Positions 5,245 through 51,379 of a DNA stretch of 64,000 nucleotides are shown piece by piece. The notes beneath the pieces are model-generated. The model was not told the origin of the DNA. It made no database searches and saw only the letters and a list, made by a program, of their open reading frames with translations. Made by a program: the position numbers and the translations under genes. Position 1 is the first letter of the stretch. Every line of letters begins with the position of its first letter. The stretch comes from a bacterium (lineage in GTDB: Bacteria > Patescibacteriota > Minisyncoccia > Phycocordibacterales > Phycocordibacteraceae). Where the stretch lies: positions 84,379 through 148,378 of the forward strand of contig JAJZRL010000001.1 of the NCBI GenBank assembly GCA_021802705.1, written 5' to 3'.

Positions 5245-6386
5245 TACGCGACGTCATACCGGCAGAAGAGCTTTTAAAAAAAGCGCGGGCAGTCGGCCAA
5301 TACTACGGTTTCACTCCCCTTGAAACCCTTACGGCAAAAACGCGCGGCAGTCGCAAAGCGACGAGCTATCCCGAAACGCTCGCAAATCTGAAGCTCGATC
5401 CGGTCGCCGATATCGTGGCAAGCTTCTTGCATCAGTTTCAAAACGCCGATGCTGCGCCGTCGGTGCGACAGCCGCTCTTCGTCTGGCATACGAACATCGC
5501 TCCGGGACGCGCCGTTCAGAAAAAGAAAGCGGTCATCCAGTTCCACGCGCTCGGCACGGACCGAGCGCTCGCCGATGCTGTCGTCATCCGTGCGCTCCTT
5601 GCGCTTTCAAGAGACCTTTTCCGCGAGGAGCCTGTCATCCGTATCAATTCGATGGGCGACAAAGAAACCCGCGCGCGCTACGCGCGCGAGCTCGGTGTTT
5701 TTTTCAAAAAACGCGCGCATCTGCTTCCTGAGGACTGCGTGAGCTGCGCGAAACGCGACCCTCTCGAAGCGGCGGAGCTTGTCGTGGCACGTTCCGGCGC
5801 GGACGATCTCCCGACGCCGACCGAACACCTCTCGGACATGAGCCGCAAGCGTTTCGAGGATCTGCTCGAATATCTCGAAACGACCGAGACGCCCTACGAG
5901 CTTTCGCGCGATCTCCTCAGTCGCGGCAACGTATGGAACGACGCCTGTTTCGAGCTTGTTGTCGACGAGCAGCGTGTGGCATGGGGTTCGCACTACAGCG
6001 ACCTCGCGCGCCATTTCTTCCCTCGCGCGCCTTTCAGCGCGGTCGGTGCCATACTGCAAGTAGCGAGCGAAGGCGCGGTGAGCGCGAAACCGGCTCAGGC
6101 GCGCGCCCGTTTTTCATTCGTCCACATAGGAGACGAGGCAAAGCGGCTTTCGATCCGTCTTGCCGAAGATTTCCGGCGGGCGCATATCCCTCTCGCTCAA
6201 GATATCGGCGTCGAATCGCTCAATGAGCAGCTCTATCTCGCAGAACGGCGCAACAGCCCCTACTTGCTCATCATGGGGCGCAAAGAAGCGCTTGAAGGAT
6301 CCGCCATCCTGCGCAATCGGCAAACGCAGGAGAACACCGTCCTTCCTCTTATGGGTATCACCGAACGCCTCAAGGCCATATCGTAG
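5241..6386 (+). CDS. histidyl-tRNA-synthetase-like protein (HisS/HisZ family, divergent)
   Basis: RINSMGD and CVSCAKRDPLEAAE resemble the HisRS INSLGD and CxxC...NPLRxLD insertion. The C-terminus (LLIMGRKEALEGSAILRNRQTQENTV) resembles the HisRS anticodon-binding domain. The class II catalytic motifs are degenerate and the protein is short (381 aa). The start overlaps the lepB stop. Confidence 0.55.
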   Translation: MIRDVIPAEELLKKARAVGQYYGFTPLETLTAKTRGSRKATSYPETLANLKLDPVADIVASFLHQFQNADAAPSVRQPLFVWHTNIAPGRAVQKKKAVIQFHALGTDRALADAVVIRALLALSRDLFREEPVIRINSMGDKETRARYARELGVFFKKRAHLLPEDCVSCAKRDPLEAAELVVARSGADDLPTPTEHLSDMSRKRFEDLLEYLETTETPYELSRDLLSRGNVWNDACFELVVDEQRVAWGSHYSDLARHFFPRAPFSAVGAILQVASEGAVSAKPAQARARFSFVHIGDEAKRLSIRLAEDFRRAHIPLAQDIGVESLNEQLYLAERRNSPYLLIMGRKEALEGSAILRNRQTQENTVLPLMGITERLKAIS

Positions 6387-6421
6387 ACAAACGTCGCGGT
6401 GATATGGTAGAGTCACTAGCA

Positions 6422-6697
6422 ATGGTAACGGCCGGTACCCGAGTCGAAGTCCGTCGCGGAAAAAGCGAGAGCTCTTCCGCGCTTATTCGTCGTTTTACGC
6501 GCCGAGCGCAAGGACTCGGTCTCGTCCACGAAGTTCGCGACAGGCGGTACTGGCAGCGCACGAAATCAAAAAACGTCAATCACAAACGGGCGCTTATCTC
6601 GAAAACGCGGCGCGAAAAATATGAGGAGCTCGTCAAGCTCGGAAAGATCGATCCGGCGGCGCGGAAAGGCGGACGAGGGAGGAGCGACAAGCGCTAG
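6422..6697 (+). CDS. rpsU: 30S ribosomal protein S21
   Basis: TRVEVRRGKSESSSALIRRFTRRAQGLGLVHEVRDRRYWQRTKSKNVNHKRA matches the S21 pattern (VxVRxxExxxxALRRFxR....EVRxRR.Y.kP). The start may be the upstream Met at 6404. Confidence 0.8.
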   Translation: MVTAGTRVEVRRGKSESSSALIRRFTRRAQGLGLVHEVRDRRYWQRTKSKNVNHKRALISKTRREKYEELVKLGKIDPAARKGGRGRSDKR

Positions 6698-6702
6698 ACG
6701 GA

Positions 6703-7155
6703 ATGGGGGGCGTTTCGGTCAAAAATCTTACGCGGCGCGTTTCGGTGCCGCGTTTCGCATACGGAACGATACTCGATGAGACGCTTCCCCGCTGGGACGT
6801 CTCGCTCGTTTTCGTCGGACCGGCAAAAGCGAAGCTATTGAACAAGCAGTTGCGGGGAAAACTGTACACGCCGAACGTCCTCTCATACGCTCTTGGAGAA
6901 AGGAGCGGCGAGATCATCATCTGCCTGCAGGAGGCGGAAAAACAAGCGCCGGCTTATGGCATGACGAAACGCGATTTCGTCCTCTATTTGTTTATCCACG
7001 GATTGCTGCATTTGAAAGGCATGGCACATGGCGCTACGATGGATACATGCGAACAAGAACTCTTGGCACGGTTTGCCAAGAGTGGCGTGCGCACCACCCT
7101 CTCTACATGTCTCGGAACATCGTCACCGGAATCGATATCGGAACGTACCAGGTAA
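6703..7155 (+). CDS. ybeY: endoribonuclease YbeY (rRNA maturation factor)
   Basis: The HGLLHLKGMAHG metal-binding motif (H..LHL.G.DH type) is present. The length is ~150 aa. The 3' end overlaps ftsA by ~48 nt. Confidence 0.75.
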   Translation: MGGVSVKNLTRRVSVPRFAYGTILDETLPRWDVSLVFVGPAKAKLLNKQLRGKLYTPNVLSYALGERSGEIIICLQEAEKQAPAYGMTKRDFVLYLFIHGLLHLKGMAHGATMDTCEQELLARFAKSGVRTTLSTCLGTSSPESISERTR

Positions 7156-8264
7156 AACTGGTCGTCATCGAGGAACTCGCGGATAAGCGAGGCGGGCGGC
7201 AACGGCATGTTATCGGGACGGGACTCGCCGAGTCGAAAGGGCTACGGCACGGGTACGTCGTCAACAAGGACGAGGTCGTCGCGAGCATTCTCGAAGCGAA
7301 ACGGCAGGCCGAAGCCATCGCGCGGATACCTATCCGGTCCGGCTTCCTTTCTATCGGCGGGATCTCGCTCGACGAAGCTCACGCGACCGGCAGCACGATC
7401 ATTTCGCGCGCGGATCAGGAGATAACCGCGCTCGATATAGAAAAAGCGGGGAAAGCCGCCCGCGAAGCCGCGACGCCCGCTTTCCTCAACCGTTACGTCC
7501 TCCATAGCATCCCGCTTGAATACCGCATCGATGACGTCAAGGTTCTCGGCGACCCTCTCGGCATGAAAGGCGTGCGGCTCGAGGTCGACTATCTTTTCGT
7601 CACGTGCCTCGCGCAGCACAAGGACGCTCTCTCACAGGCGGTCGAAGATGCGGATATCGAGGTTATCGACCAGATGGCCTCCCCGCTTGCGGGCTCATAC
7701 GTACTCCTCGACGGGGATCAGAAGATGAAGGGCTGCGTGCTCGCGAATATCGGCGCCGAAACCGTCTCGATCGTCGTGTACGACGAGAACATACCCATTT
7801 CCGTAAAAGTGTTCCCGATGGGCTCAAGCCACATCACGGATGACATAGCGCTCGGTTTCCGCATCTCGCTCGAGGAAGCCGAACGGGTAAAGATGGGACG
7901 GCTCGCCGGGCAGATGTACTCGCGCAAGAAGATAGAAGACCTCGTCGCGAACCGTCTCGAGACGATGTTCACGCTCATCGACAAGCATTTGAAATCGCTC
8001 GGGCGGCGCGGACCGCTTCCGGCAGGCATCATCATATCGGGCGGCGGAGCCGGTATCGGCTCCATAAGCGATATCGCGAAAGATTCGCTTAAGCTCCCTG
8101 CCCGGCTTGCCGAATTTCGCCTCTCTTCCGACGCTAAGATCCAGGATGCGACGTGGGCCGTGGCCTACGGCCTCGCGCGCTGGGGACTCACGGGCGATAC
8201 GGGCGTGCCAAAAAAGAGTATGGGCATCAACGTCGGGAAATTCTTGCGGCAATTCTTGCCGTAG
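7107..8264 (+). CDS. ftsA: cell division protein FtsA
   Basis: MSRNIVTGIDIGTYQVKLVVIEE... shows the actin-like ATPase fold and ...IISGGGAGIGSI.... The gene is directly upstream of ftsZ. The start is taken at the internal Met because the longer ORF overlaps ybeY. Confidence 0.9.
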   Translation: MSRNIVTGIDIGTYQVKLVVIEELADKRGGRQRHVIGTGLAESKGLRHGYVVNKDEVVASILEAKRQAEAIARIPIRSGFLSIGGISLDEAHATGSTIISRADQEITALDIEKAGKAAREAATPAFLNRYVLHSIPLEYRIDDVKVLGDPLGMKGVRLEVDYLFVTCLAQHKDALSQAVEDADIEVIDQMASPLAGSYVLLDGDQKMKGCVLANIGAETVSIVVYDENIPISVKVFPMGSSHITDDIALGFRISLEEAERVKMGRLAGQMYSRKKIEDLVANRLETMFTLIDKHLKSLGRRGPLPAGIIISGGGAGIGSISDIAKDSLKLPARLAEFRLSSDAKIQDATWAVAYGLARWGLTGDTGVPKKSMGINVGKFLRQFLP

Positions 8265-10655: not shown

Positions 10656-11519
10656 TTAAGGCTGTTGCGCGGGTCCGACGATAAAACGCACGGAATAATC
10701 CGGCTCGACGGTTAAGTCGATTTCTCCATGGCCGTCAAATTCATAGTAATACGACCAGCAGCCCGGGTTTTCGTGCGCCGGAAACGCTTCGCCATAAGGT
10801 CCGGCGTTTGAAACCCAGCCGGCCGTCGCATTGCCGTTGATGGTTTTGAACCGGAGATTGTGCTCTTTGTCCGGGTAGACATCCTTAGGGAGGTTGATAA
10901 AGAGCCGGGTCGTTTCGGGCACCTCCTGCGTCGAACCGTTCGGGATGCCGCCGCAAAGAAGGATTTTCCCGTTATCGGACATGGCGGTCATAAGCGGAAG
11001 GGGCTCCAAAGGGCGGCCTTGCAAAATAGCATCGACTTCCTCGTAACCGGATGGGAAAGCGTAATTGTAACGCGCAGGGAGCGCAAAGACGTACTGAGCA
11101 TTGTAGCCGAGCCGGGTAGGGTTTATGGGTGCCGCACCGATGTGGAATTCGCCGCGCAAAAGCGCATCCCACTGCGTCAGCGTGAAAACCATGATCGGAA
11201 TATCTTGAGAGGGCTTTTGGGCGGTCCATTTTGGGTTTCTGATCGAAATCAGGGGTCCGTGCTCCGTGGGCACGTCGCCCCGGGCGGCAATCGAGTACCC
11301 GTCCCACGTACTCATGATGATGGAGTAACCGCTCCAATCCTGCGGCAGAGAGAATTTGAATCCATACTGGCTATTCACATATTCGACAGAAGTTTGAACA
11401 GGAGGAGGTTGTGCGCTTCCTGTCGCGTGTTCATTCTTATTTAAAAACCACGCATATCCGATGGCGGCTATTGCCAACAGTACGACTGAAAAAATTAAGA
11501 GTTTTCTGTTCATGATCAA
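10656..11519 (-). CDS. hypothetical secreted or membrane-anchored protein
   Basis: An N-terminal signal-anchor (MIMNRKLLIFSVVLLAIAAIGYAWF) is present. No family was recognised. Confidence 0.55.
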   Translation of the reverse strand: MIMNRKLLIFSVVLLAIAAIGYAWFLNKNEHATGSAQPPPVQTSVEYVNSQYGFKFSLPQDWSGYSIIMSTWDGYSIAARGDVPTEHGPLISIRNPKWTAQKPSQDIPIMVFTLTQWDALLRGEFHIGAAPINPTRLGYNAQYVFALPARYNYAFPSGYEEVDAILQGRPLEPLPLMTAMSDNGKILLCGGIPNGSTQEVPETTRLFINLPKDVYPDKEHNLRFKTINGNATAGWVSNAGPYGEAFPAHENPGCWSYYYEFDGHGEIDLTVEPDYSVRFIVGPAQQP

Positions 11520-11630
11520 AAGTTTGTCTTGTCTTTACCAGCGCATGCATGAATGGTACCAGATTGAAGAAATGATAGTTTTCGCCGATTGATAGATGAG
11601 TTAGAATAACCAGAATCTTCGGAGTTTCAA

Positions 11631-12005
11631 ATGAAAATGGATACAAAAAGAAAAAAAGAAATCGAAGAAATTGAGCAATCCTACAAGACTCCCATGGACA
11701 ACACCTTGCGCGGGTTTCTGGATTTCATCCGTGAACAGGGCGTCGTCGGGCTCGCGATCGGATTCCTCTTTGGCGGCGCGGTGTCCAAGGTCGTCGCAGC
11801 TCTGGTGACGGACATCATTAACCCGCTTCTCTCCTTTGCGATGGGATCGGCAAACGGGCTCAAACAGGCATACATCCCGCTTGGCGGCGCGAAAATCATG
11901 TGGGGAGATTTCCTCTCGGTCCTTATCGACTTTCTCATCATCGCGATCATCATCTACTTCGGCTTCAAGGGGCTCGGCCTCGACCGGCTAGAAAAGAAGG
12001 AGTGA
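11631..12005 (+). CDS. mscL: large-conductance mechanosensitive channel
   Basis: ...FLDFIREQGVVGLAIGFLFGGAVSKVVAALVTDIINPLL... followed by a second TM helix and a charged tail is a clear MscL architecture. Confidence 0.9.
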   Translation: MKMDTKRKKEIEEIEQSYKTPMDNTLRGFLDFIREQGVVGLAIGFLFGGAVSKVVAALVTDIINPLLSFAMGSANGLKQAYIPLGGAKIMWGDFLSVLIDFLIIAIIIYFGFKGLGLDRLEKKE

Positions 12006-12252
12006 AAGATGTTCCTGGGGTCTTAAAGGAGCGTTTTCTATTCCTCCGCAAACCAATACTCAAACTCGTACTGATGCTCTTTGCCGATGACGGTGATTTT
12101 CATTTCGCCCTCCGTCGTCACGAAAGGGGCCCCGAGTCTGCCCGATACTTTCTTCTAAGGGCGGGAGTCCCCAGACTCGAGCTATTCGGGCCTGCCGATA
12201 AAACCGCCTCACCGTGTCGATATAACGACACATTCGATAAAAAAGTCTAGCT

Positions 12253-12339
12253 GCGGAGAGGGTGGGATTCGAACCCACGGTCCAGTTACCCGGACGCCGC
12301 ATTTCGAGTGCGGTGCCTTCGACCACTCAGCCACCTCTC
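12253..12339 (-). tRNA. tRNA-Ser (anticodon CGA), long variable arm
   Basis: The reverse complement GGAGAGGTGGCTGAGTGGTCGAAGGCACCGCACTCGAAATGCGGCGTCCGGGTAACTGGACCGTGGGTTCGAATCCCACCCTCTCCG folds as a cloverleaf with a long variable arm. The anticodon loop is CTCGAAA. No CCA is encoded. Confidence 0.85.
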
Positions 12340-12398
12340 CTGACTCCGAAACCTTACCATTTTTGAAATCGTCGCGGAAGGTGATAGATTTCATAGAC

Positions 12399-12470
12399 GG
12401 CCCTATCGTCTAACGGTTAGGACAGCGCCCTTTCACGGCGTAAATCGGGGTTCGATTCCCCGTAGGGTCA
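12399..12470 (+). tRNA. tRNA-Glu (anticodon TTC)
   Basis: GGCCCTATCGTCTAACGGTTAGGACAGCGCCCTTTCACGGCGTAAATCGGGGTTCGATTCCCCGTAGGGTCA has acceptor GGCCCTA/TAGGGTC and an anticodon stem GCGCC/GGCGT with loop CTTTCAC. Confidence 0.85.
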
Positions 12471-12559
12471 CAAATTGAAACTTATGCCGGATTGAGTGCG
12501 GCGGAGCCGCGCCGAGCGCGTGGTGGCTTGAACCCGAAGCGTACGCCCCGACCTCCCAA

Positions 12560-12649
12560 ACGCGCCTCGGCCGCGCTCGCTCCGCTCGCGCGGCAAACCC
12601 AAAAATTTCCTTGCCATTTTGTGCGGCTCCTCCCCCGACCCCTCCGCCG
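12560..12649. repeat. left arm of a ~90-bp imperfect inverted repeat (IR-L)
   Basis: acgcgcctcggccgcgctcgctccgctcgcgcggcaaacccaaaaatttccttgccattttgtgcggctcctcccccgacccctccgccg matches the reverse complement of 14646-14733 at roughly 90% identity. The alignment was done by hand. Confidence 0.8.
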
Positions 12650-12753
12650 AAAGGCAAAAAGAAGGAAAGGAAATTTTTTGGTTTGCTCCGCCGCTTCGAA
12701 TGTTCATTGAATATTAAGAATCGTTACGATAGTTTCGATGTTGTAAGTCTGTT

Positions 12754-13383
12754 ATGATGATACATATGCAACAGAAGACAATTCTCGGAGCAGTAATTGT
12801 TGTCGTGCTCGTCGCGGGCGGTGTTGTGGCGTGGAATTTTACCGCTACGTCTGGAGTACCTACAACAACCGAATCTCCAACTAGCTCGACCACGGCGTCA
12901 AATAATGTGACTCAGCCTGAATGGAAATCATATACTGACTCCACTACCGGATTCACGTTCAAATATCCAGCACAGTATGTAGTGGAAGCATCACCACTTC
13001 CGCCAGGTGACTGGGGATCACGAAGACTGCTCATGGTAGATGACAATCCAGATTCTACATCGACCAAAGCACGTGCACTTCCCATGACCGTTGACTTGCA
13101 AAAGCAACCTGTAACTGCGGACGGAAAGATATATCACACTATCGCCGAATATCAACAGAGCGGTGCTGCGGCGGAAATGATGCAGGGAGTGACGAATCCA
13201 AACGGCAACATCGTATCAGTCAATGGTACACAAACGCTCCTCTATCATATTCCGCCGGCAGACTCGACTGGGATTGGAGGTGATTCGTATCTCTTTATTC
13301 ACAATGATCTTATTTACCAAGTGGGTATCAATCCGGACAATCCGTTAGCGATTCAGATGCTGAACAGCATCAACTGGCAGTAA
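12754..13383 (+). CDS. hypothetical secreted protein (signal-anchor plus Thr/Ser-rich linker)
   Basis: MMIHMQQKTILGAVIVVVLVAGGVVAWNF is followed by TTTESPTSSTTASNN. G+C is lower than the backbone. No family was recognised. Confidence 0.6.
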   Translation: MMIHMQQKTILGAVIVVVLVAGGVVAWNFTATSGVPTTTESPTSSTTASNNVTQPEWKSYTDSTTGFTFKYPAQYVVEASPLPPGDWGSRRLLMVDDNPDSTSTKARALPMTVDLQKQPVTADGKIYHTIAEYQQSGAAAEMMQGVTNPNGNIVSVNGTQTLLYHIPPADSTGIGGDSYLFIHNDLIYQVGINPDNPLAIQMLNSINWQ

Positions 13384-13420
13384 ATAAAAAAACCCCACGC
13401 CGATAGACGTGGGGTTGCTC
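13384..13420. terminator. bidirectional intrinsic terminator between convergent genes
   Basis: The sequence aaaaaaaCCCCACGccgatagaCGTGGGGtt has a 7-bp GC stem, an A-run upstream on the plus strand, and a T-run on the minus strand downstream of the M23 gene. Confidence 0.6.
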
Positions 13421-13448
13421 AAACAGAGCGGTTAGGAAAAGTGCCTTG

Positions 13449-14306
13449 TTATTTCCAGAGGTTTGCAGGAGTGACGACTGACGCGCTGTAGAGCGGATCG
13501 GTGCCACCACCGACCCAGCCATACGGATCGACGATCGGGTAGGCTTCCGGCCCAATGGATGTTGGGATATAGCGCACCTCGAAGTGCAGATGTGCGGGGA
13601 GTGAGCAGCCAGTTCCGCAACGACCACCGACCGTTCCGATGTACTGGCCAGCAGTGATGCTTTGACCAGGCGTGACGGAAATCATCGTATCCAGGTGCAG
13701 ATACTGGTAGAAGTAGTTATGACCACCAGTAGCGACCGTGGGCCGGATGGCGAGCGCACCCCAACTTGCGCAGCTTCCGCTTCCGGTATTGCCGAGATAG
13801 CAGATTGTGCTGATCACGGTTCCGTCGGCGGCGGCATACACCGGAGTCCCGAGCGACGCTTTGTAGTCATAGCCCGGATGTTCGTCGTAAGACGAATAGC
13901 CCGAGCCGCAGCCGTTGTCGTTCGTCATCCGTTTCGATGGGTCCCAATCGGGGTGAAGATAAATCGTGCCGCCGATGCAGGTGTTATCACTGCTTTTCGG
14001 TGTGCCGCTGACGCTCTCTCCATTGAACGCGATGATTTTTCCGTCTCCACCACCGCTGCTCAGTGTCCCGTAGGGATAGTAGCTGTTCGCGGGGTTGATT
14101 TTCATCGAGTGATCGAGCACCGAATTCATTGCGTTGGCGCTGTATGCGCCTTCCACCGTGTAGTCGATACTCCCTGAAGGACACACCCCGCCCACAAGAG
14201 GGTCTGAGCACTTGAGTGGAAACTGGAGAAATCCGGCAAATGCTGGAGTTGACCCCAGACCGAAAACAAGCAGCATTGCTGCCAAGACATTACGTAACAA
14301 GTTCAC
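13449..14306 (-). CDS. secreted M23-family metallopeptidase (LytM/lysostaphin-type peptidoglycan hydrolase)
   Basis: A signal peptide (MNLLRNVLAAMLLVFGLGSTPAFA) is present, and the M23 catalytic motifs HPGYDY (HxxxD) and HLHFEV (HxH) are in the expected order. Confidence 0.85.
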   Translation of the reverse strand: MNLLRNVLAAMLLVFGLGSTPAFAGFLQFPLKCSDPLVGGVCPSGSIDYTVEGAYSANAMNSVLDHSMKINPANSYYPYGTLSSGGGDGKIIAFNGESVSGTPKSSDNTCIGGTIYLHPDWDPSKRMTNDNGCGSGYSSYDEHPGYDYKASLGTPVYAAADGTVISTICYLGNTGSGSCASWGALAIRPTVATGGHNYFYQYLHLDTMISVTPGQSITAGQYIGTVGGRCGTGCSLPAHLHFEVRYIPTSIGPEAYPIVDPYGWVGGGTDPLYSASVVTPANLWK

Positions 14307-14645
14307 TTCTGTCTCCTTTTGCTAGAAAGAACAAATCGCACGCAGTAGTGCGATATCGGCAATCCCGCCGATATTTTCACCCCACCACATGAATCCTATA
14401 TGCCTCGCGTGGATAAGCATTTAATCAACTCGACCGAAGCCGCCAAGCGAGCGCGGCACGCACCGAGCAGGCCGCGCGAACGGATGTGAGCGGCCAGTGC
14501 GAGGTGCGGAACGATGCGAGCGGACGCTACCTTACCACGCGACCCCGAAGCAGGAGCGCCCCGGCCGCCGCGAAGCCGGAAAAGCGAAGGGGTTTGAGAG
14601 CATGTGAACACTTGCGACCTTAACCCGAGCTTTGAGAGGCTGAAG

Positions 14646-14733
14646 CGGCGGAGGGGTCGGGGGAGGAGCCGCACAAGATGCAAGGAAATTTTTGGGTTTG
14701 CGGCGCGAGCGGCGCGAGCGCGCCGGGGCGCGT
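14646..14733. repeat. right arm of the inverted repeat (IR-R)
   Basis: cggcggaggggtcgggggaggagccgcacaagatgcaaggaaatttttgggtttgcggcgcgagcggcgcgagcgcgccggggcgcgt is the reverse complement of IR-L with a few mismatches. Confidence 0.8.
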
Positions 14734-14824
14734 GTTAGTCCGATCGGCTGAAGTAGGTTCGCGCGAAGTTGGCTATTTCATCACACTTCAGATTACGGTC
14801 GCATCGTGGTAAGATGCCGGCACT

Positions 14825-14897
14825 GCGCGGTTAGCTCAGTTGGTAGAGCACTTCCTTGACGTGGATGGGGTCAGGGGTTCGAGTCCCTTACCGCGCA
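14825..14897 (+). tRNA. tRNA-Val (anticodon GAC)
   Basis: GCGCGGTTAGCTCAGTTGGTAGAGCACTTCCTTGACGTGGATGGGGTCAGGGGTTCGAGTCCCTTACCGCGCA has acceptor GCGCGGT/ACCGCGC, anticodon loop TTGACGT and a TTCGAGT T-loop. There is one T:T mismatch in the anticodon stem. Confidence 0.8.
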
Positions 14898-14899
14898 CA

Positions 14900-15718
14900 A
14901 TGCAGGAACGATACGGCACGCATATCCGAAAAAAGCGGATCGGGAGGAAACCTTCTTCTTCGAAGGTATACGTTTACGGCCGGCACGCTCTCATGGAAGC
15001 GCTCCGAAGCGATACGCTGAGCGAAAGCGCGCGAGCAAAACTTATCCGCAAGGTCTTTCTCGCGCCGGAAGCACGGGACAAAGAGCTGCAGACGCTCCTC
15101 GAAAAGAACGCGATACCGACCGCCGCGCTCGCGGGCGGAAAAGGAAAAGAGCTCGCGGGAAGAGACGCGGTGCATCAGGGCGTCATCGCTTCCATAGATC
15201 CGTCGGCGCTCTTCCTACCGCTCGATGACTTCTTGTCATCGCTCGACATGAAGAGAAATCCCGCGATAGCGGTTCTTGGCGAGCTGCAGGACCCCCACAA
15301 CGTGGGCGCCGTTATCCGTTCGGCTGCCGCCTTCGGCCTCGCCGGCGTCCTGATTCCCGAACACAATCAGGCCCCTATCACGGGAGCGGTGGTAAAAAGC
15401 TCTTCCGGCATGACATTCCGGATCCCGCTGGTCTCGATACGCAACGTCAACCATGCGCTCAAGGTGCTCAAGACGAAGGGTTTCTGGACGTACGGCCTCT
15501 CGATGCAGGGGAAGACCGCGCTTGGCGCGGAGACGTTCGATACGCCAAGCGCGTTCGTGATCGGTAACGAAGGTTCCGGGATCCGGGAAAAGACGCTCGA
15601 AGCCTGCGACATCACGCTTTCCATTCCTATGCATCCGCGAACGGAATCCCTCAACGCTGCCGTGTCAGCGGCGATCGTCTTTTATGAGTGGTCGCGCAAG
15701 CATCCGGACGCGCTATGA
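14900..15718 (+). CDS. rlmB: 23S rRNA (guanosine-2'-O)-methyltransferase, SpoU/TrmH family (RlmB-like)
   Basis: The SpoU motifs ...LGELQDPHNVGAVIRSAAAFG..., ...FVIGNEGSGI... and ...SLNAAVSAAIVFYE are present. The ORF-track start at 14840 overlaps tRNA-Val, so the first ATG after the tRNA (14900) was used. Confidence 0.8.
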   Translation: MQERYGTHIRKKRIGRKPSSSKVYVYGRHALMEALRSDTLSESARAKLIRKVFLAPEARDKELQTLLEKNAIPTAALAGGKGKELAGRDAVHQGVIASIDPSALFLPLDDFLSSLDMKRNPAIAVLGELQDPHNVGAVIRSAAAFGLAGVLIPEHNQAPITGAVVKSSSGMTFRIPLVSIRNVNHALKVLKTKGFWTYGLSMQGKTALGAETFDTPSAFVIGNEGSGIREKTLEACDITLSIPMHPRTESLNAAVSAAIVFYEWSRKHPDAL

Positions 15719-31537: not shown

Positions 31538-31552
31538 AAAAAAACCGGGCTA

Positions 31553-31886
31553 GGCGATCGCTCCTTGAGAAATCAGGGGGAGGAAAGTCCGAACACGGCT
31601 CCGCGTAAAACGGAGAGAACGGTAGCGGGTAACGCCCGCACGCCGTGAGGCGCGAGGTGCGAACAGTGACGCCCGGAACGAAAGCGAAGGGCATCTCCGT
31701 CGACGAAAGAAGCCGGAGATGAATTCCCGAGGCGACTCGGGAGATGAAACGGCTAAATCCTTACCACCGTGCAAGGCCGTGTCCTGCTCGAACGGGCAGG
31801 AAGAGCCGCTCGAGGTCTTGAGCAATCAGGATCCCAGACACATGATCGTCCACGACAGAATTCGGCTTATCGGCCCGGTCGCTCAT
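31553..31886 (+). ncRNA. rnpB: RNase P RNA (bacterial type A-like)
   Basis: The P4 strands GGGAGGAAAGTCCGaaCacggCTCC and ACAGAAtTCGGCTTAT are present, together with GGGTAACGCC and a P1 pairing GCGATCG/CGGTCGC. The region has no credible protein-coding ORF. Confidence 0.85.
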
Positions 31887-51060: not shown

Positions 51061-51379
51061 AAAATCTACTAGGATTTATGTGGCAGAACCTCCTGAGAAA
51101 ATCAAAAGGCTCCCAGCCATCGCGATAGCGCCTTTCGGCAACTACCCATACCCGTTTCCAGATATGACCTAGTAGAGTGACTCTGACTGGGAGTCCTTTG
51201 ATCTCTACTAGGTTTTGCGGCCATACCTTAGGAATTTGACTTCCTAAGGGTTAGGTCGGCTTATATTAGGTTGTGCAAGTACATGATAGCAGAAAACGCT
51301 ATCATCTGACCACCTTAGCTTAGCTTTGGGGGCTTGCGAAGCGGTTACCAACAGGTTGGGCAAATACAATTACTATCAT

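Follow-up and report, generated by a model that had tools for sequence, protein, structure and literature searches.

The DNA analysed here is a window of 64,000 nt from contig JAJZRL010000001.1, which belongs to a patescibacterium of the family Phycocordibacteraceae, and the structure in question lies between its tRNA-Glu and tRNA-Val genes: two convergent genes, one for a PsbP-like protein and one for an M23 peptidase, bracketed by an inverted repeat. The reading we propose, to which we assign a probability of roughly 80%, is that this interval is a degenerate member of a family of tRNA-linked cassettes which are bracketed by inverted repeats and associated with a large serine recombinase (LSR), and that it has lost the LSR itself. 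The two arms of the repeat are copies of a conserved element of about 230 nt, named E1, and the sequence that joins the tRNA-Glu gene to the left arm is a remnant of the unit that carries the LSR gene in relatives. Taken together, the sequences point to the M23 and PsbP-like genes as acquired cargo in a decayed element rather than as parts of an active switch.

In the proposed model, a degenerate integrative element had inserted at the 3' end of the tRNA-Glu gene, and positions 12472-14784 would be its cargo module. Intact relatives run from the tRNA 3' end through an LSR unit of about 1.65 kb, enclosed by its own inverted arms (A arms), into a cassette lying between two inward-pointing E1 copies, and the junction of the E1 adaptor with the tRNA would be the site at which the LSR crosses over. 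The LSR gene, the second A arm and the E1 adaptor would have gone in a deletion that joined the GC hairpin of the A arm to that of E1, and the right E1 copy would later have lost two internal pieces. The remainder would be a fixed islet expressing two genes, for the PsbP-like protein and the M23 peptidase, each of them probably driven by the region upstream of it.

The cassette between tRNA-Glu and tRNA-Val

The features of the locus, in positions of the window, are the following.

12253-12340, minus strand: tRNA-Ser(cga) (ARAGORN, Rfam)
12399-12471, plus strand: tRNA-Glu(ttc) (ARAGORN, Rfam); its 3' end is the probable insertion point
12472-12514, plus strand: A-arm remnant, outer end of the recombinase unit, AAATTGAAACTTATGCCGGATTGAGTGCGGCGGAGCCGCGCCG
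12515-12700, plus strand: left E1 arm, whole from its GC hairpin onwards, 5' adaptor absent
12694-12839, plus strand: inner flank, made of the upstream region and first 28 codons of cargo gene 1
12754-13383, plus strand: cargo gene 1, an open reading frame for a weakly PsbP_2-like protein of 209 aa with an N-terminal membrane anchor (membrane-anchored or secreted)
13391-13416, no strand assigned: terminator-like hairpin between the convergent genes, 11-bp stem, T-run on the minus strand
13449-14306, minus strand: cargo gene 2, Peptidase_M23 with signal peptide (Pfam PF01551, E 7e-17)
14307-14433, minus strand: the M23 gene's own upstream region, which travels with the gene
14400-14650, minus strand: M2 module, a conserved GC-rich block with a hairpin of about 80 nt, just inside the right arm
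14645-14784, minus strand: right E1 arm, degenerate
14825-14898, plus strand: tRNA-Val(gac) (ARAGORN, Rfam), the conserved right border of the variable interval, followed by rlmB

The inverted repeat reported in an earlier note on this DNA is real: positions 12560-12649 and 14646-14733 give a 90-nt alignment that has 2 gaps and is 93.3% identical (BLAST E 2.6e-32), they keep perfect runs of 22 and 31 nt, and both core strings of the repeat are confined to the two arms within the 64 kb, where 0 occurrences are expected by chance. An independent contig in ENA (L001) is 100% identical to 12253-14883 and leaves the orientation unchanged. The arms had been taken for units of about 90 nt, and this has to be revised, the repeat being the best-preserved part of two longer E1 copies. 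The left copy, which includes 12560-12649, was matched by the E1 profile in nhmmer at 12476-12693 (plus strand, score 192, model positions 7-227) and was aligned to 24 other copies; in this match it starts 4 nt past the tRNA-Glu gene and is a nearly complete element of about 220 nt, with an internal hairpin (12593-12614 / 12665-12686). The right copy, matched at 14771-14645 (minus strand, score 66, model positions 14-184) across an inner gap of 1951 nt, has suffered two internal deletions: about 45 nt are gone from its 5' part, and a second deletion, flanked by two CCGCCG repeats, took the 3' half of the big hairpin. The arms are thus unequal, and the symmetric nesting between the two tRNA genes described earlier does not hold.

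The loss of the recombinase unit can be read at the left border. Of the 43 nt that follow the tRNA-Glu gene, 41 agree with the A arm found directly after tRNA-Glu in JAKAJJ010000026 (L043), and this stretch is fused to E1 at its first GC hairpin; neither the LSR gene nor a second A arm nor the E1 adaptor is left. A tblastn search with the family LSR found no LSR gene in the 64 kb, the only match being a pseudo-hit of 28 aa that covers the A remnant and the tRNA read in antisense. The earlier statement that no recombinase lies inside or beside the segment therefore stands for encoded genes, while it overlooked the remnant of the recombinase unit at 12472-12514. At the right border the E1 adaptor has been kept. 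It ends in TTTCATCAC at 14780-14784, with TCAC at 14781-14784, and the tRNA-Glu gene ends in GGTCAC at 12471; the same four letters are found at both ends of the element, and the last 4 nt of tRNA-Glu would represent the recombination core.

The comparison with relatives argues for an islet at a tRNA hotspot, which was one of the three explanations first offered. The divergent pair tRNA-Ser/tRNA-Glu that marks the hotspot is conserved in seven further loci (L043, L047, L127, L128, L130, L131 and L132). L043 is syntenic with the window (TrxB, tRNA-Ser on the minus strand, tRNA-Glu on the plus strand), and in L043 and L047 an LSR unit starts directly past the same tRNA-Glu, followed by E1 in L043, where the LSR gene occupies 6174-7763 on the minus strand. 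Relatives found through RlmB, at 75% identity or less and annotated as Kaiserbacteria or Paceibacteria, keep the frame tRNA-Ser, tRNA-Glu ... tRNA-Val-rlmB and differ in what it contains: in L128/L130 the start of a diverged A arm, remnants of an LSR, a cation ATPase and a PQQ protein, in L127 a PQQ-repeat protein, and in L131/L132 a beta-lactamase-like gene, E1 and A sequence being absent. In some relatives an LSR or what is left of one comes immediately past tRNA-Glu. The kind of fusion of A and E1 seen in the window recurs in L127, at tRNA-Ser, and in four further loci devoid of an LSR a 5'-truncated E1 lies no more than 153 nt from the 3' end of a tRNA. The window itself has, past the 3' end of tRNA-Ser(cga), a stretch (12130-12252) in which AGCTAGACTTTTTTATCG...CGGTGAGGCGG resembles the arm-start and adaptor motifs; it may be a second, more decayed element, and L043 and L127 have an E1 cassette at this same tRNA-Ser.

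The secreted M23 peptidase of the earlier description is confirmed by its signal peptide, by a score of 61.8 bits for PF01551 (cut-off 28.7) and by the zinc ligands HxxxD (HPGYD) and HxH (HLH) readable in the translation. The open reading frame codes for 285 aa; the form found in the databases has 275 aa, starts at 14276 and matches protein P0121 exactly. For gene 1 the match to PsbP_2 (PF18933, E 7e-5) lies under the cut-off of the family. The two genes are convergent as described, and the single terminator said to serve both is confirmed in part, the hairpin being strong for the minus-strand gene and followed by a weak tail for the plus-strand gene. The low G+C content ascribed to both genes holds for gene 1 alone (47.6%; 45.7% at third codon positions): the M23 gene has 56.4% (63.6% at third positions) against a window mean of 54.9%, third positions of the backbone being at about 70%.

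At the nucleotide level, the similarity of the M23 gene to the M23 loci L133/L134, which have no E1, reaches window position 14433, and the M23 gene with about 130 nt of upstream sequence and a convergent PsbP-like partner is found in other contexts of the Candidate Phyla Radiation (CPR) without E1; when the module was looked for inside other E1 cassettes, none was found. In L135-L137 (4488-6858) an 81%-identical M23 gene and its convergent partner directly adjoin a different LSR of 443 aa, with ThsB_TIR (Thoeris-like) genes on the other side, downstream of a tRNA. More distant relatives of the peptidase span 45-72% identity (P0130, labelled Rhizomicrobium; P0186, Hyphomicrobiales; P0135, on a 2.2-Mb contig), those at 66-72% being on contigs labelled Alphaproteobacteria, and these labels hint at exchange between CPR and larger bacteria. 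As to gene 1, window positions 12563-12839 are 93.9% identical over 278 nt to positions 542-817 of the metagenome contig L092 (OFGV01006690.1), after which the proteins diverge: L092 shares the 3' part of E1, the upstream region of gene 1 and its first 28 codons, and then continues with another protein body. The outer flank of L092 is GC-rich and very unlike that of the window.

Just upstream of the hotspot, positions 10656-11519 (minus strand) encode a secreted-looking protein of 287 aa with a weakly PsbP_2-like N-terminus, and beside this gene the G+C content falls to 38.7% (11400-11700); both may be further acquired material. The Rfam scan of the window also detected a bacterial RNase P class A RNA (31542-31885, plus strand, 112 bits) and a LOOT RNA (51124-51257, minus strand, 77 bits).

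The E1 family and its recombinase units

Among the findings that the earlier note said would refute its reading was that the repeat occurs only here, and this is not the case. A 20-mer from the repeat (GCAAACCMAAAAATTTCCTT), used as a probe against species-representative genomes, metagenomes and viral contigs, matched 47 genome stretches, mostly from bins of Patescibacteria, and 78 metagenome stretches; there were 0 matches among the viral contigs, which leaves a phage origin without support. Alignment of these sequences revealed the conserved element of about 230 nt, and the nhmmer profile built for it found E1 in 105 fetched loci, again mostly from Patescibacteria. The copies number about two per genome (1-3 per genome bin) and are paired: in 31 of 34 cases neighbouring copies are convergent with their 5' ends outward, around inner gaps of 1.35-5.0 kb, and the two copies of one genome are usually 89-100% identical over 200-250 nt. 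The window has this same arrangement, two convergent copies with 5' ends outward around cargo within the range of 1.3-5 kb. The G+C content of E1 stays at about 59% while that of its hosts ranges from 33 to 66%. Copies were also found on contigs of 59-66% G+C labelled Acidobacteria or Xanthobacteraceae (L005, L018 and L028), one of which, L005, has in addition a gene for an MFS transporter of the aromatic-acid type. This would mean that the family is not confined to Patescibacteria, unless the contigs in question are chimeric or were placed in the wrong bins.

A single cassette makes up the whole of many metagenome contigs, which both start and stop within E1, often in its foldback of about 100 nt (L053, L057, L071, L105, L109 and others), and many short contigs have one end there; E1 is a systematic assembly break point in CPR bins. 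Searched against Rfam at the gathering scores and at E-values up to 5, neither arm of the window matched a family, the sole overlap (MIR949 on the left arm, E 3.8, 18.8 bits against a gathering score of 100) being at the level of chance. The predicted fold of the left region is more stable than those of shuffled sequences (z = -4.8), and RNAalifold predicted 35 pairs over 25 E1 copies with 0 compensatory changes; because the sequence is too conserved for its structure to be tested, no claim of an RNA is made for E1.

The recombinase of the family is a protein of about 500 aa with the domains Resolvase, Recombinase and Zn_ribbon_recom, which matches phrog_95 (integrase) and whose nearest solved relative is YokA of SPbeta. 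Its gene lies between inverted A arms of 120-150 nt, the whole unit (A, LSR gene, A) measuring 1627-1703 nt, and it was found within 450 nt outside 16 of the 57 E1 5' ends that could be scored. The A arms reach 4-8 nt into the tRNA 3' end in 11 of 11 LSR units, beside 9 tRNA species. At eight loci, with eight different tRNAs, the E1 5' end stands 1660-1705 nt from the tRNA 3' end. The outer 35 nt or so of E1 form an adaptor whose first 4-8 nt mirror the end of the neighbouring tRNA: E1 opens with the last nucleotides of the tRNA in reverse complement (tcac, ccgc, gcac, ccacca, caccgcca and others), and this is because the A arms extend into the tRNA. Such a match fits a shared crossover core, at which the LSR would act.

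Two further candidates were considered at these borders. The E1 adaptor was examined as a true 3' half of a tRNA, with which it shares the GGTTCGA motif and the terminal 4-8 nt; the complementary T-stem is absent, and the adaptor is a mimic. Locus L012 was rejected as an unoccupied docking site, 13-14 nt lying between the tRNA end and the adaptor. In L020 an LSR unit without a tRNA stands between two cassettes and is flanked by two facing adaptors.

Inside the arms, many of the cassettes examined share a layout in which E1 is followed by a palindromic upstream region and an XRE gene, then by cargo transcribed inward, a hairpin, M2 and the second E1, although some cassettes do not have all the parts. 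The upstream region of the XRE gene is conserved between cassettes, and this small XRE/HTH_3 gene is often found beside one arm, M2 adjoining one E1 arm in many cassettes. The M2 block of the window is 70-83% identical to that of at least 15 other E1 loci, and its hairpin has 5 compensatory pairs (RNAalifold). The cargo of other cassettes includes DUF6671, a pilin-like protein with the N-terminal methylation motif, an MA-type peptidase, an AbiEii toxin and an S51 peptidase, and several cargo proteins are without any family match. Two other arm families, E3 (L020, 3278-6348) and E2 (L025, 2290-3966), have similar adaptors and different bodies; they bracket other cargo, a 312-aa protein and a transporter, and L020 and L025 are arrays of several units.

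Inversions and rival explanations

The LSR unit and two different E1 cassettes are each seen in both orientations in independent assemblies. L043 and L047 agree at 100% over a flank of 1891 nt, yet their LSR units, 99.8% identical, point in opposite directions; L037 and L096 match L056 in flank and cargo, with the cargo flipped; and L116 differs from L082 and L111 by the orientation of the cargo alone. In the comparison of L037 with L056 the crossover can be placed, since the arms of L037 differ, and it falls in the inner 75 nt or so of E1, unless the arms have been homogenised; in the other flipped pairs the arms are identical over the informative region. The flipping may be the work either of the LSR or of RecA acting on long repeats.

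The first rival explanation follows from these inversions: the 2-kb segment of the window would still flip as an active phase-variation switch, changing which secreted gene receives the read-through from the tRNA-Ser/Glu side, which is strongly transcribed. The orientations found in the family speak for it, and so do the perfect runs shared by the arms, which at 22 and 31 nt are near the minimum length for RecA-mediated recombination. We nevertheless consider it unlikely. The LSR is not encoded in the 64 kb; the arms agree at only 93% over 90 nt, whereas intact pairs reach 89-100% over 200-250 nt; the right arm has lost the inner 45 nt where the mapped crossover falls; the upstream region of the M23 gene moves with the gene and that of gene 1 is inside the segment; and the two independent assemblies agree on one orientation. 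In the scanned region 12200-15000, no promoter-like match was found within the arms or facing into the segment. The invertible segment proposed earlier is thus supported for the family, in which two E1 cassettes and one LSR unit occur in both orientations, and probably no longer applies to the window copy, which has lost its LSR and the inner part of its right arm and in which both genes appear to have upstream regions of their own; this copy is probably frozen.

In the second rival, the arms would be the terminal inverted repeats of a composite transposon or of a non-autonomous element akin to miniature inverted-repeat transposable elements (MITEs), which would hop by means of an enzyme encoded elsewhere. 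The arm is conserved, with its own G+C of about 59%, across genomes of 33-66% G+C, the cargo varies from cassette to cassette, and several cassettes have no adjacent LSR; these observations speak for it. Improbable as a whole, this explanation is at odds with the distribution of E1, which is present as a convergent pair, about two copies per genome, rather than as many dispersed copies, and which in the cassettes that could be scored has one end adjoining an LSR unit or a tRNA 3' end. No target-site duplication was seen beyond the 4-nt core that matches the tRNA, no identical cassette was found at two different sites, and the viral contigs gave 0 matches. With paired copies, usually beside an LSR or a tRNA gene, the cassette mobilised in trans of the earlier note is not supported; each of the note's three explanations nevertheless holds part of the truth, this one in that the arms belong to a family spread over many genomes.

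It is highly improbable that the arms are a cis-regulatory leader or a small RNA upstream of each inward-facing gene, their inversion following merely from the convergence of the two genes. Each arm does point to a gene, the left region folds with the z-score given above, and the hairpin of the adjacent M2 has compensatory changes; but neither arm matches an Rfam family, the 35 pairs predicted for E1 include 0 compensatory ones, in the other cassettes the cargo is unrelated and the arm on the M2 side lies downstream of the operon and not upstream, and the arms pair with tRNA ends and LSR units. As for a chance GC-rich palindrome or a duplication private to the lineage, which the presence of only two copies in the window might have suggested, it is refuted by the BLAST E-value of 2.6e-32 and by the same paired architecture in more than 100 related loci.

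Several observations weigh against the degenerate LSR-associated cassette that we favour. The only mapped crossover (L037 against L056) is in the inner 75 nt or so of E1 and not in the outer core, and the inversion of E1 may therefore not be catalysed by the LSR at the proposed junction. The flipped contigs could be assembly errors at long inverted repeats, which is unlikely where the identical stretch measures 75-122 nt. A clean empty site was not found among the relatives, those without E1 and A (L131/L132) holding another gene. E1 is without covariation, so that its internal hairpins are unproven as functional. Finally, 64 kb of the genome were seen and an LSR acting in trans may sit elsewhere, and the orientation of the window copy is known from two assemblies alone.

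Known systems and the wider meaning of the family

The family shares features with several known systems and differs from each. Like the inversion systems of serine recombinases and the invertons of gut bacteria (Hin/hix, Gin/gix, Cin, Pin/PinQ, with the R64 shufflon as a multi-site analogue), it has inverted repeats beside a serine recombinase gene, both orientations coexist, and the cargo includes surface proteins such as the pilin-like protein. It differs from them by an enzyme of about 500 aa of the phage-integrase type instead of an invertase of about 190 aa, by arms of 120-250 nt instead of about 26 nt, by a recombinase gene placed inside its own inverted-repeat unit, and by sites that abut tRNA 3' ends; with XRE at one arm and M2 at the other in many cassettes, an ON/OFF logic is not obvious. 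In the window there is no cognate recombinase beside the segment.

With the integrative elements of LSRs (phiC31, Bxb1, SprA/YokA of SPbeta, TnpX of Tn4451, Ccr of SCCmec) the family has in common the Resolvase, Recombinase and zinc-ribbon domains, an LSR with these three domains being present in the relatives and absent from the window, and site-specific insertion in which the core held in common is very short. The attL and attR sites that bound known LSR elements are directly oriented, and such elements are not known to have long inverted arms, whereas here the LSR gene forms a unit of about 1.65 kb with near-palindromic ends that is found in either orientation. Moreover, tRNA 3' ends are typical targets of tyrosine integrases and not of serine ones.

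The resemblance to integron arrays consists of a recombinase gene beside exchangeable cassettes, structured and conserved boundaries, variable cargo, and arrays of several units (L020, L025). Integrons, however, rely on a tyrosine integrase (IntI) and on directly oriented attC sites, which recombine in the form of folded single strands, whereas the present family uses an LSR and its cassettes are each enclosed by two boundary copies in inverted orientation. MITEs and composite transposons are alike in their terminal inverted repeats, in a unit without its own transposase and in the foldback of about 95 nt of the left arm, and unlike in that E1 numbers about two copies per genome, that target duplication was not seen and that E1 keeps to a fixed place next to tRNA genes or LSR units.

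The nearest analogue is provided by restriction-modification units flanked by imperfect long inverted repeats, without a transposase inside, whose repeats are absent elsewhere in the genome and for which action in trans was suggested (Furuta 2010, PMC2853133). They too have cargo genes between such repeats; they differ by repeats of 26-65 nt and 8-bp target duplications, by the lack of an arm family conserved across phyla and by the lack of a link to an LSR or to tRNA ends. In the full-text searches made on CPR/Patescibacteria, LSRs, inverted repeats and tRNA, this paper was the only relevant item and the architecture was not found described. The LSR-linked family of invertible cassettes is apparently undescribed.

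Could E1, the LSR units and the E2 and E3 arms be the parts of one LSR-based cassette platform at tRNA genes? We put forward this idea tentatively, as possible rather than probable. A minimal LSR element with near-palindromic ends would dock between a tRNA 3' end and a tRNA-mimicking adaptor, and the arms would let surface, cell-wall-lytic and defence modules flip, swap and pass between very different genomes, perhaps between episymbionts and larger bacteria. This last extension is hinted at by E1 on the contigs labelled Acidobacteria or Xanthobacteraceae and by the M23 relatives on those labelled Alphaproteobacteria.

The bacteria of the CPR/Patescibacteria have tiny genomes and depend on hosts, and how they vary and exchange genes for the cell surface, for attack on cell walls and for defence is poorly understood. 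The architecture reported here, with more than 100 loci fetched, is widespread and combines tRNA genes, an LSR in its own invertible unit and variable cassettes bounded by strongly conserved 230-nt elements. If the junction rule is true, it would explain the assembly breaks at E1 loci, supply a marker for accessory cassettes in CPR genome bins, and offer a code, open to testing, by which a new clade of serine integrases recognises its sites; enzymes of this class are useful tools for genome engineering.

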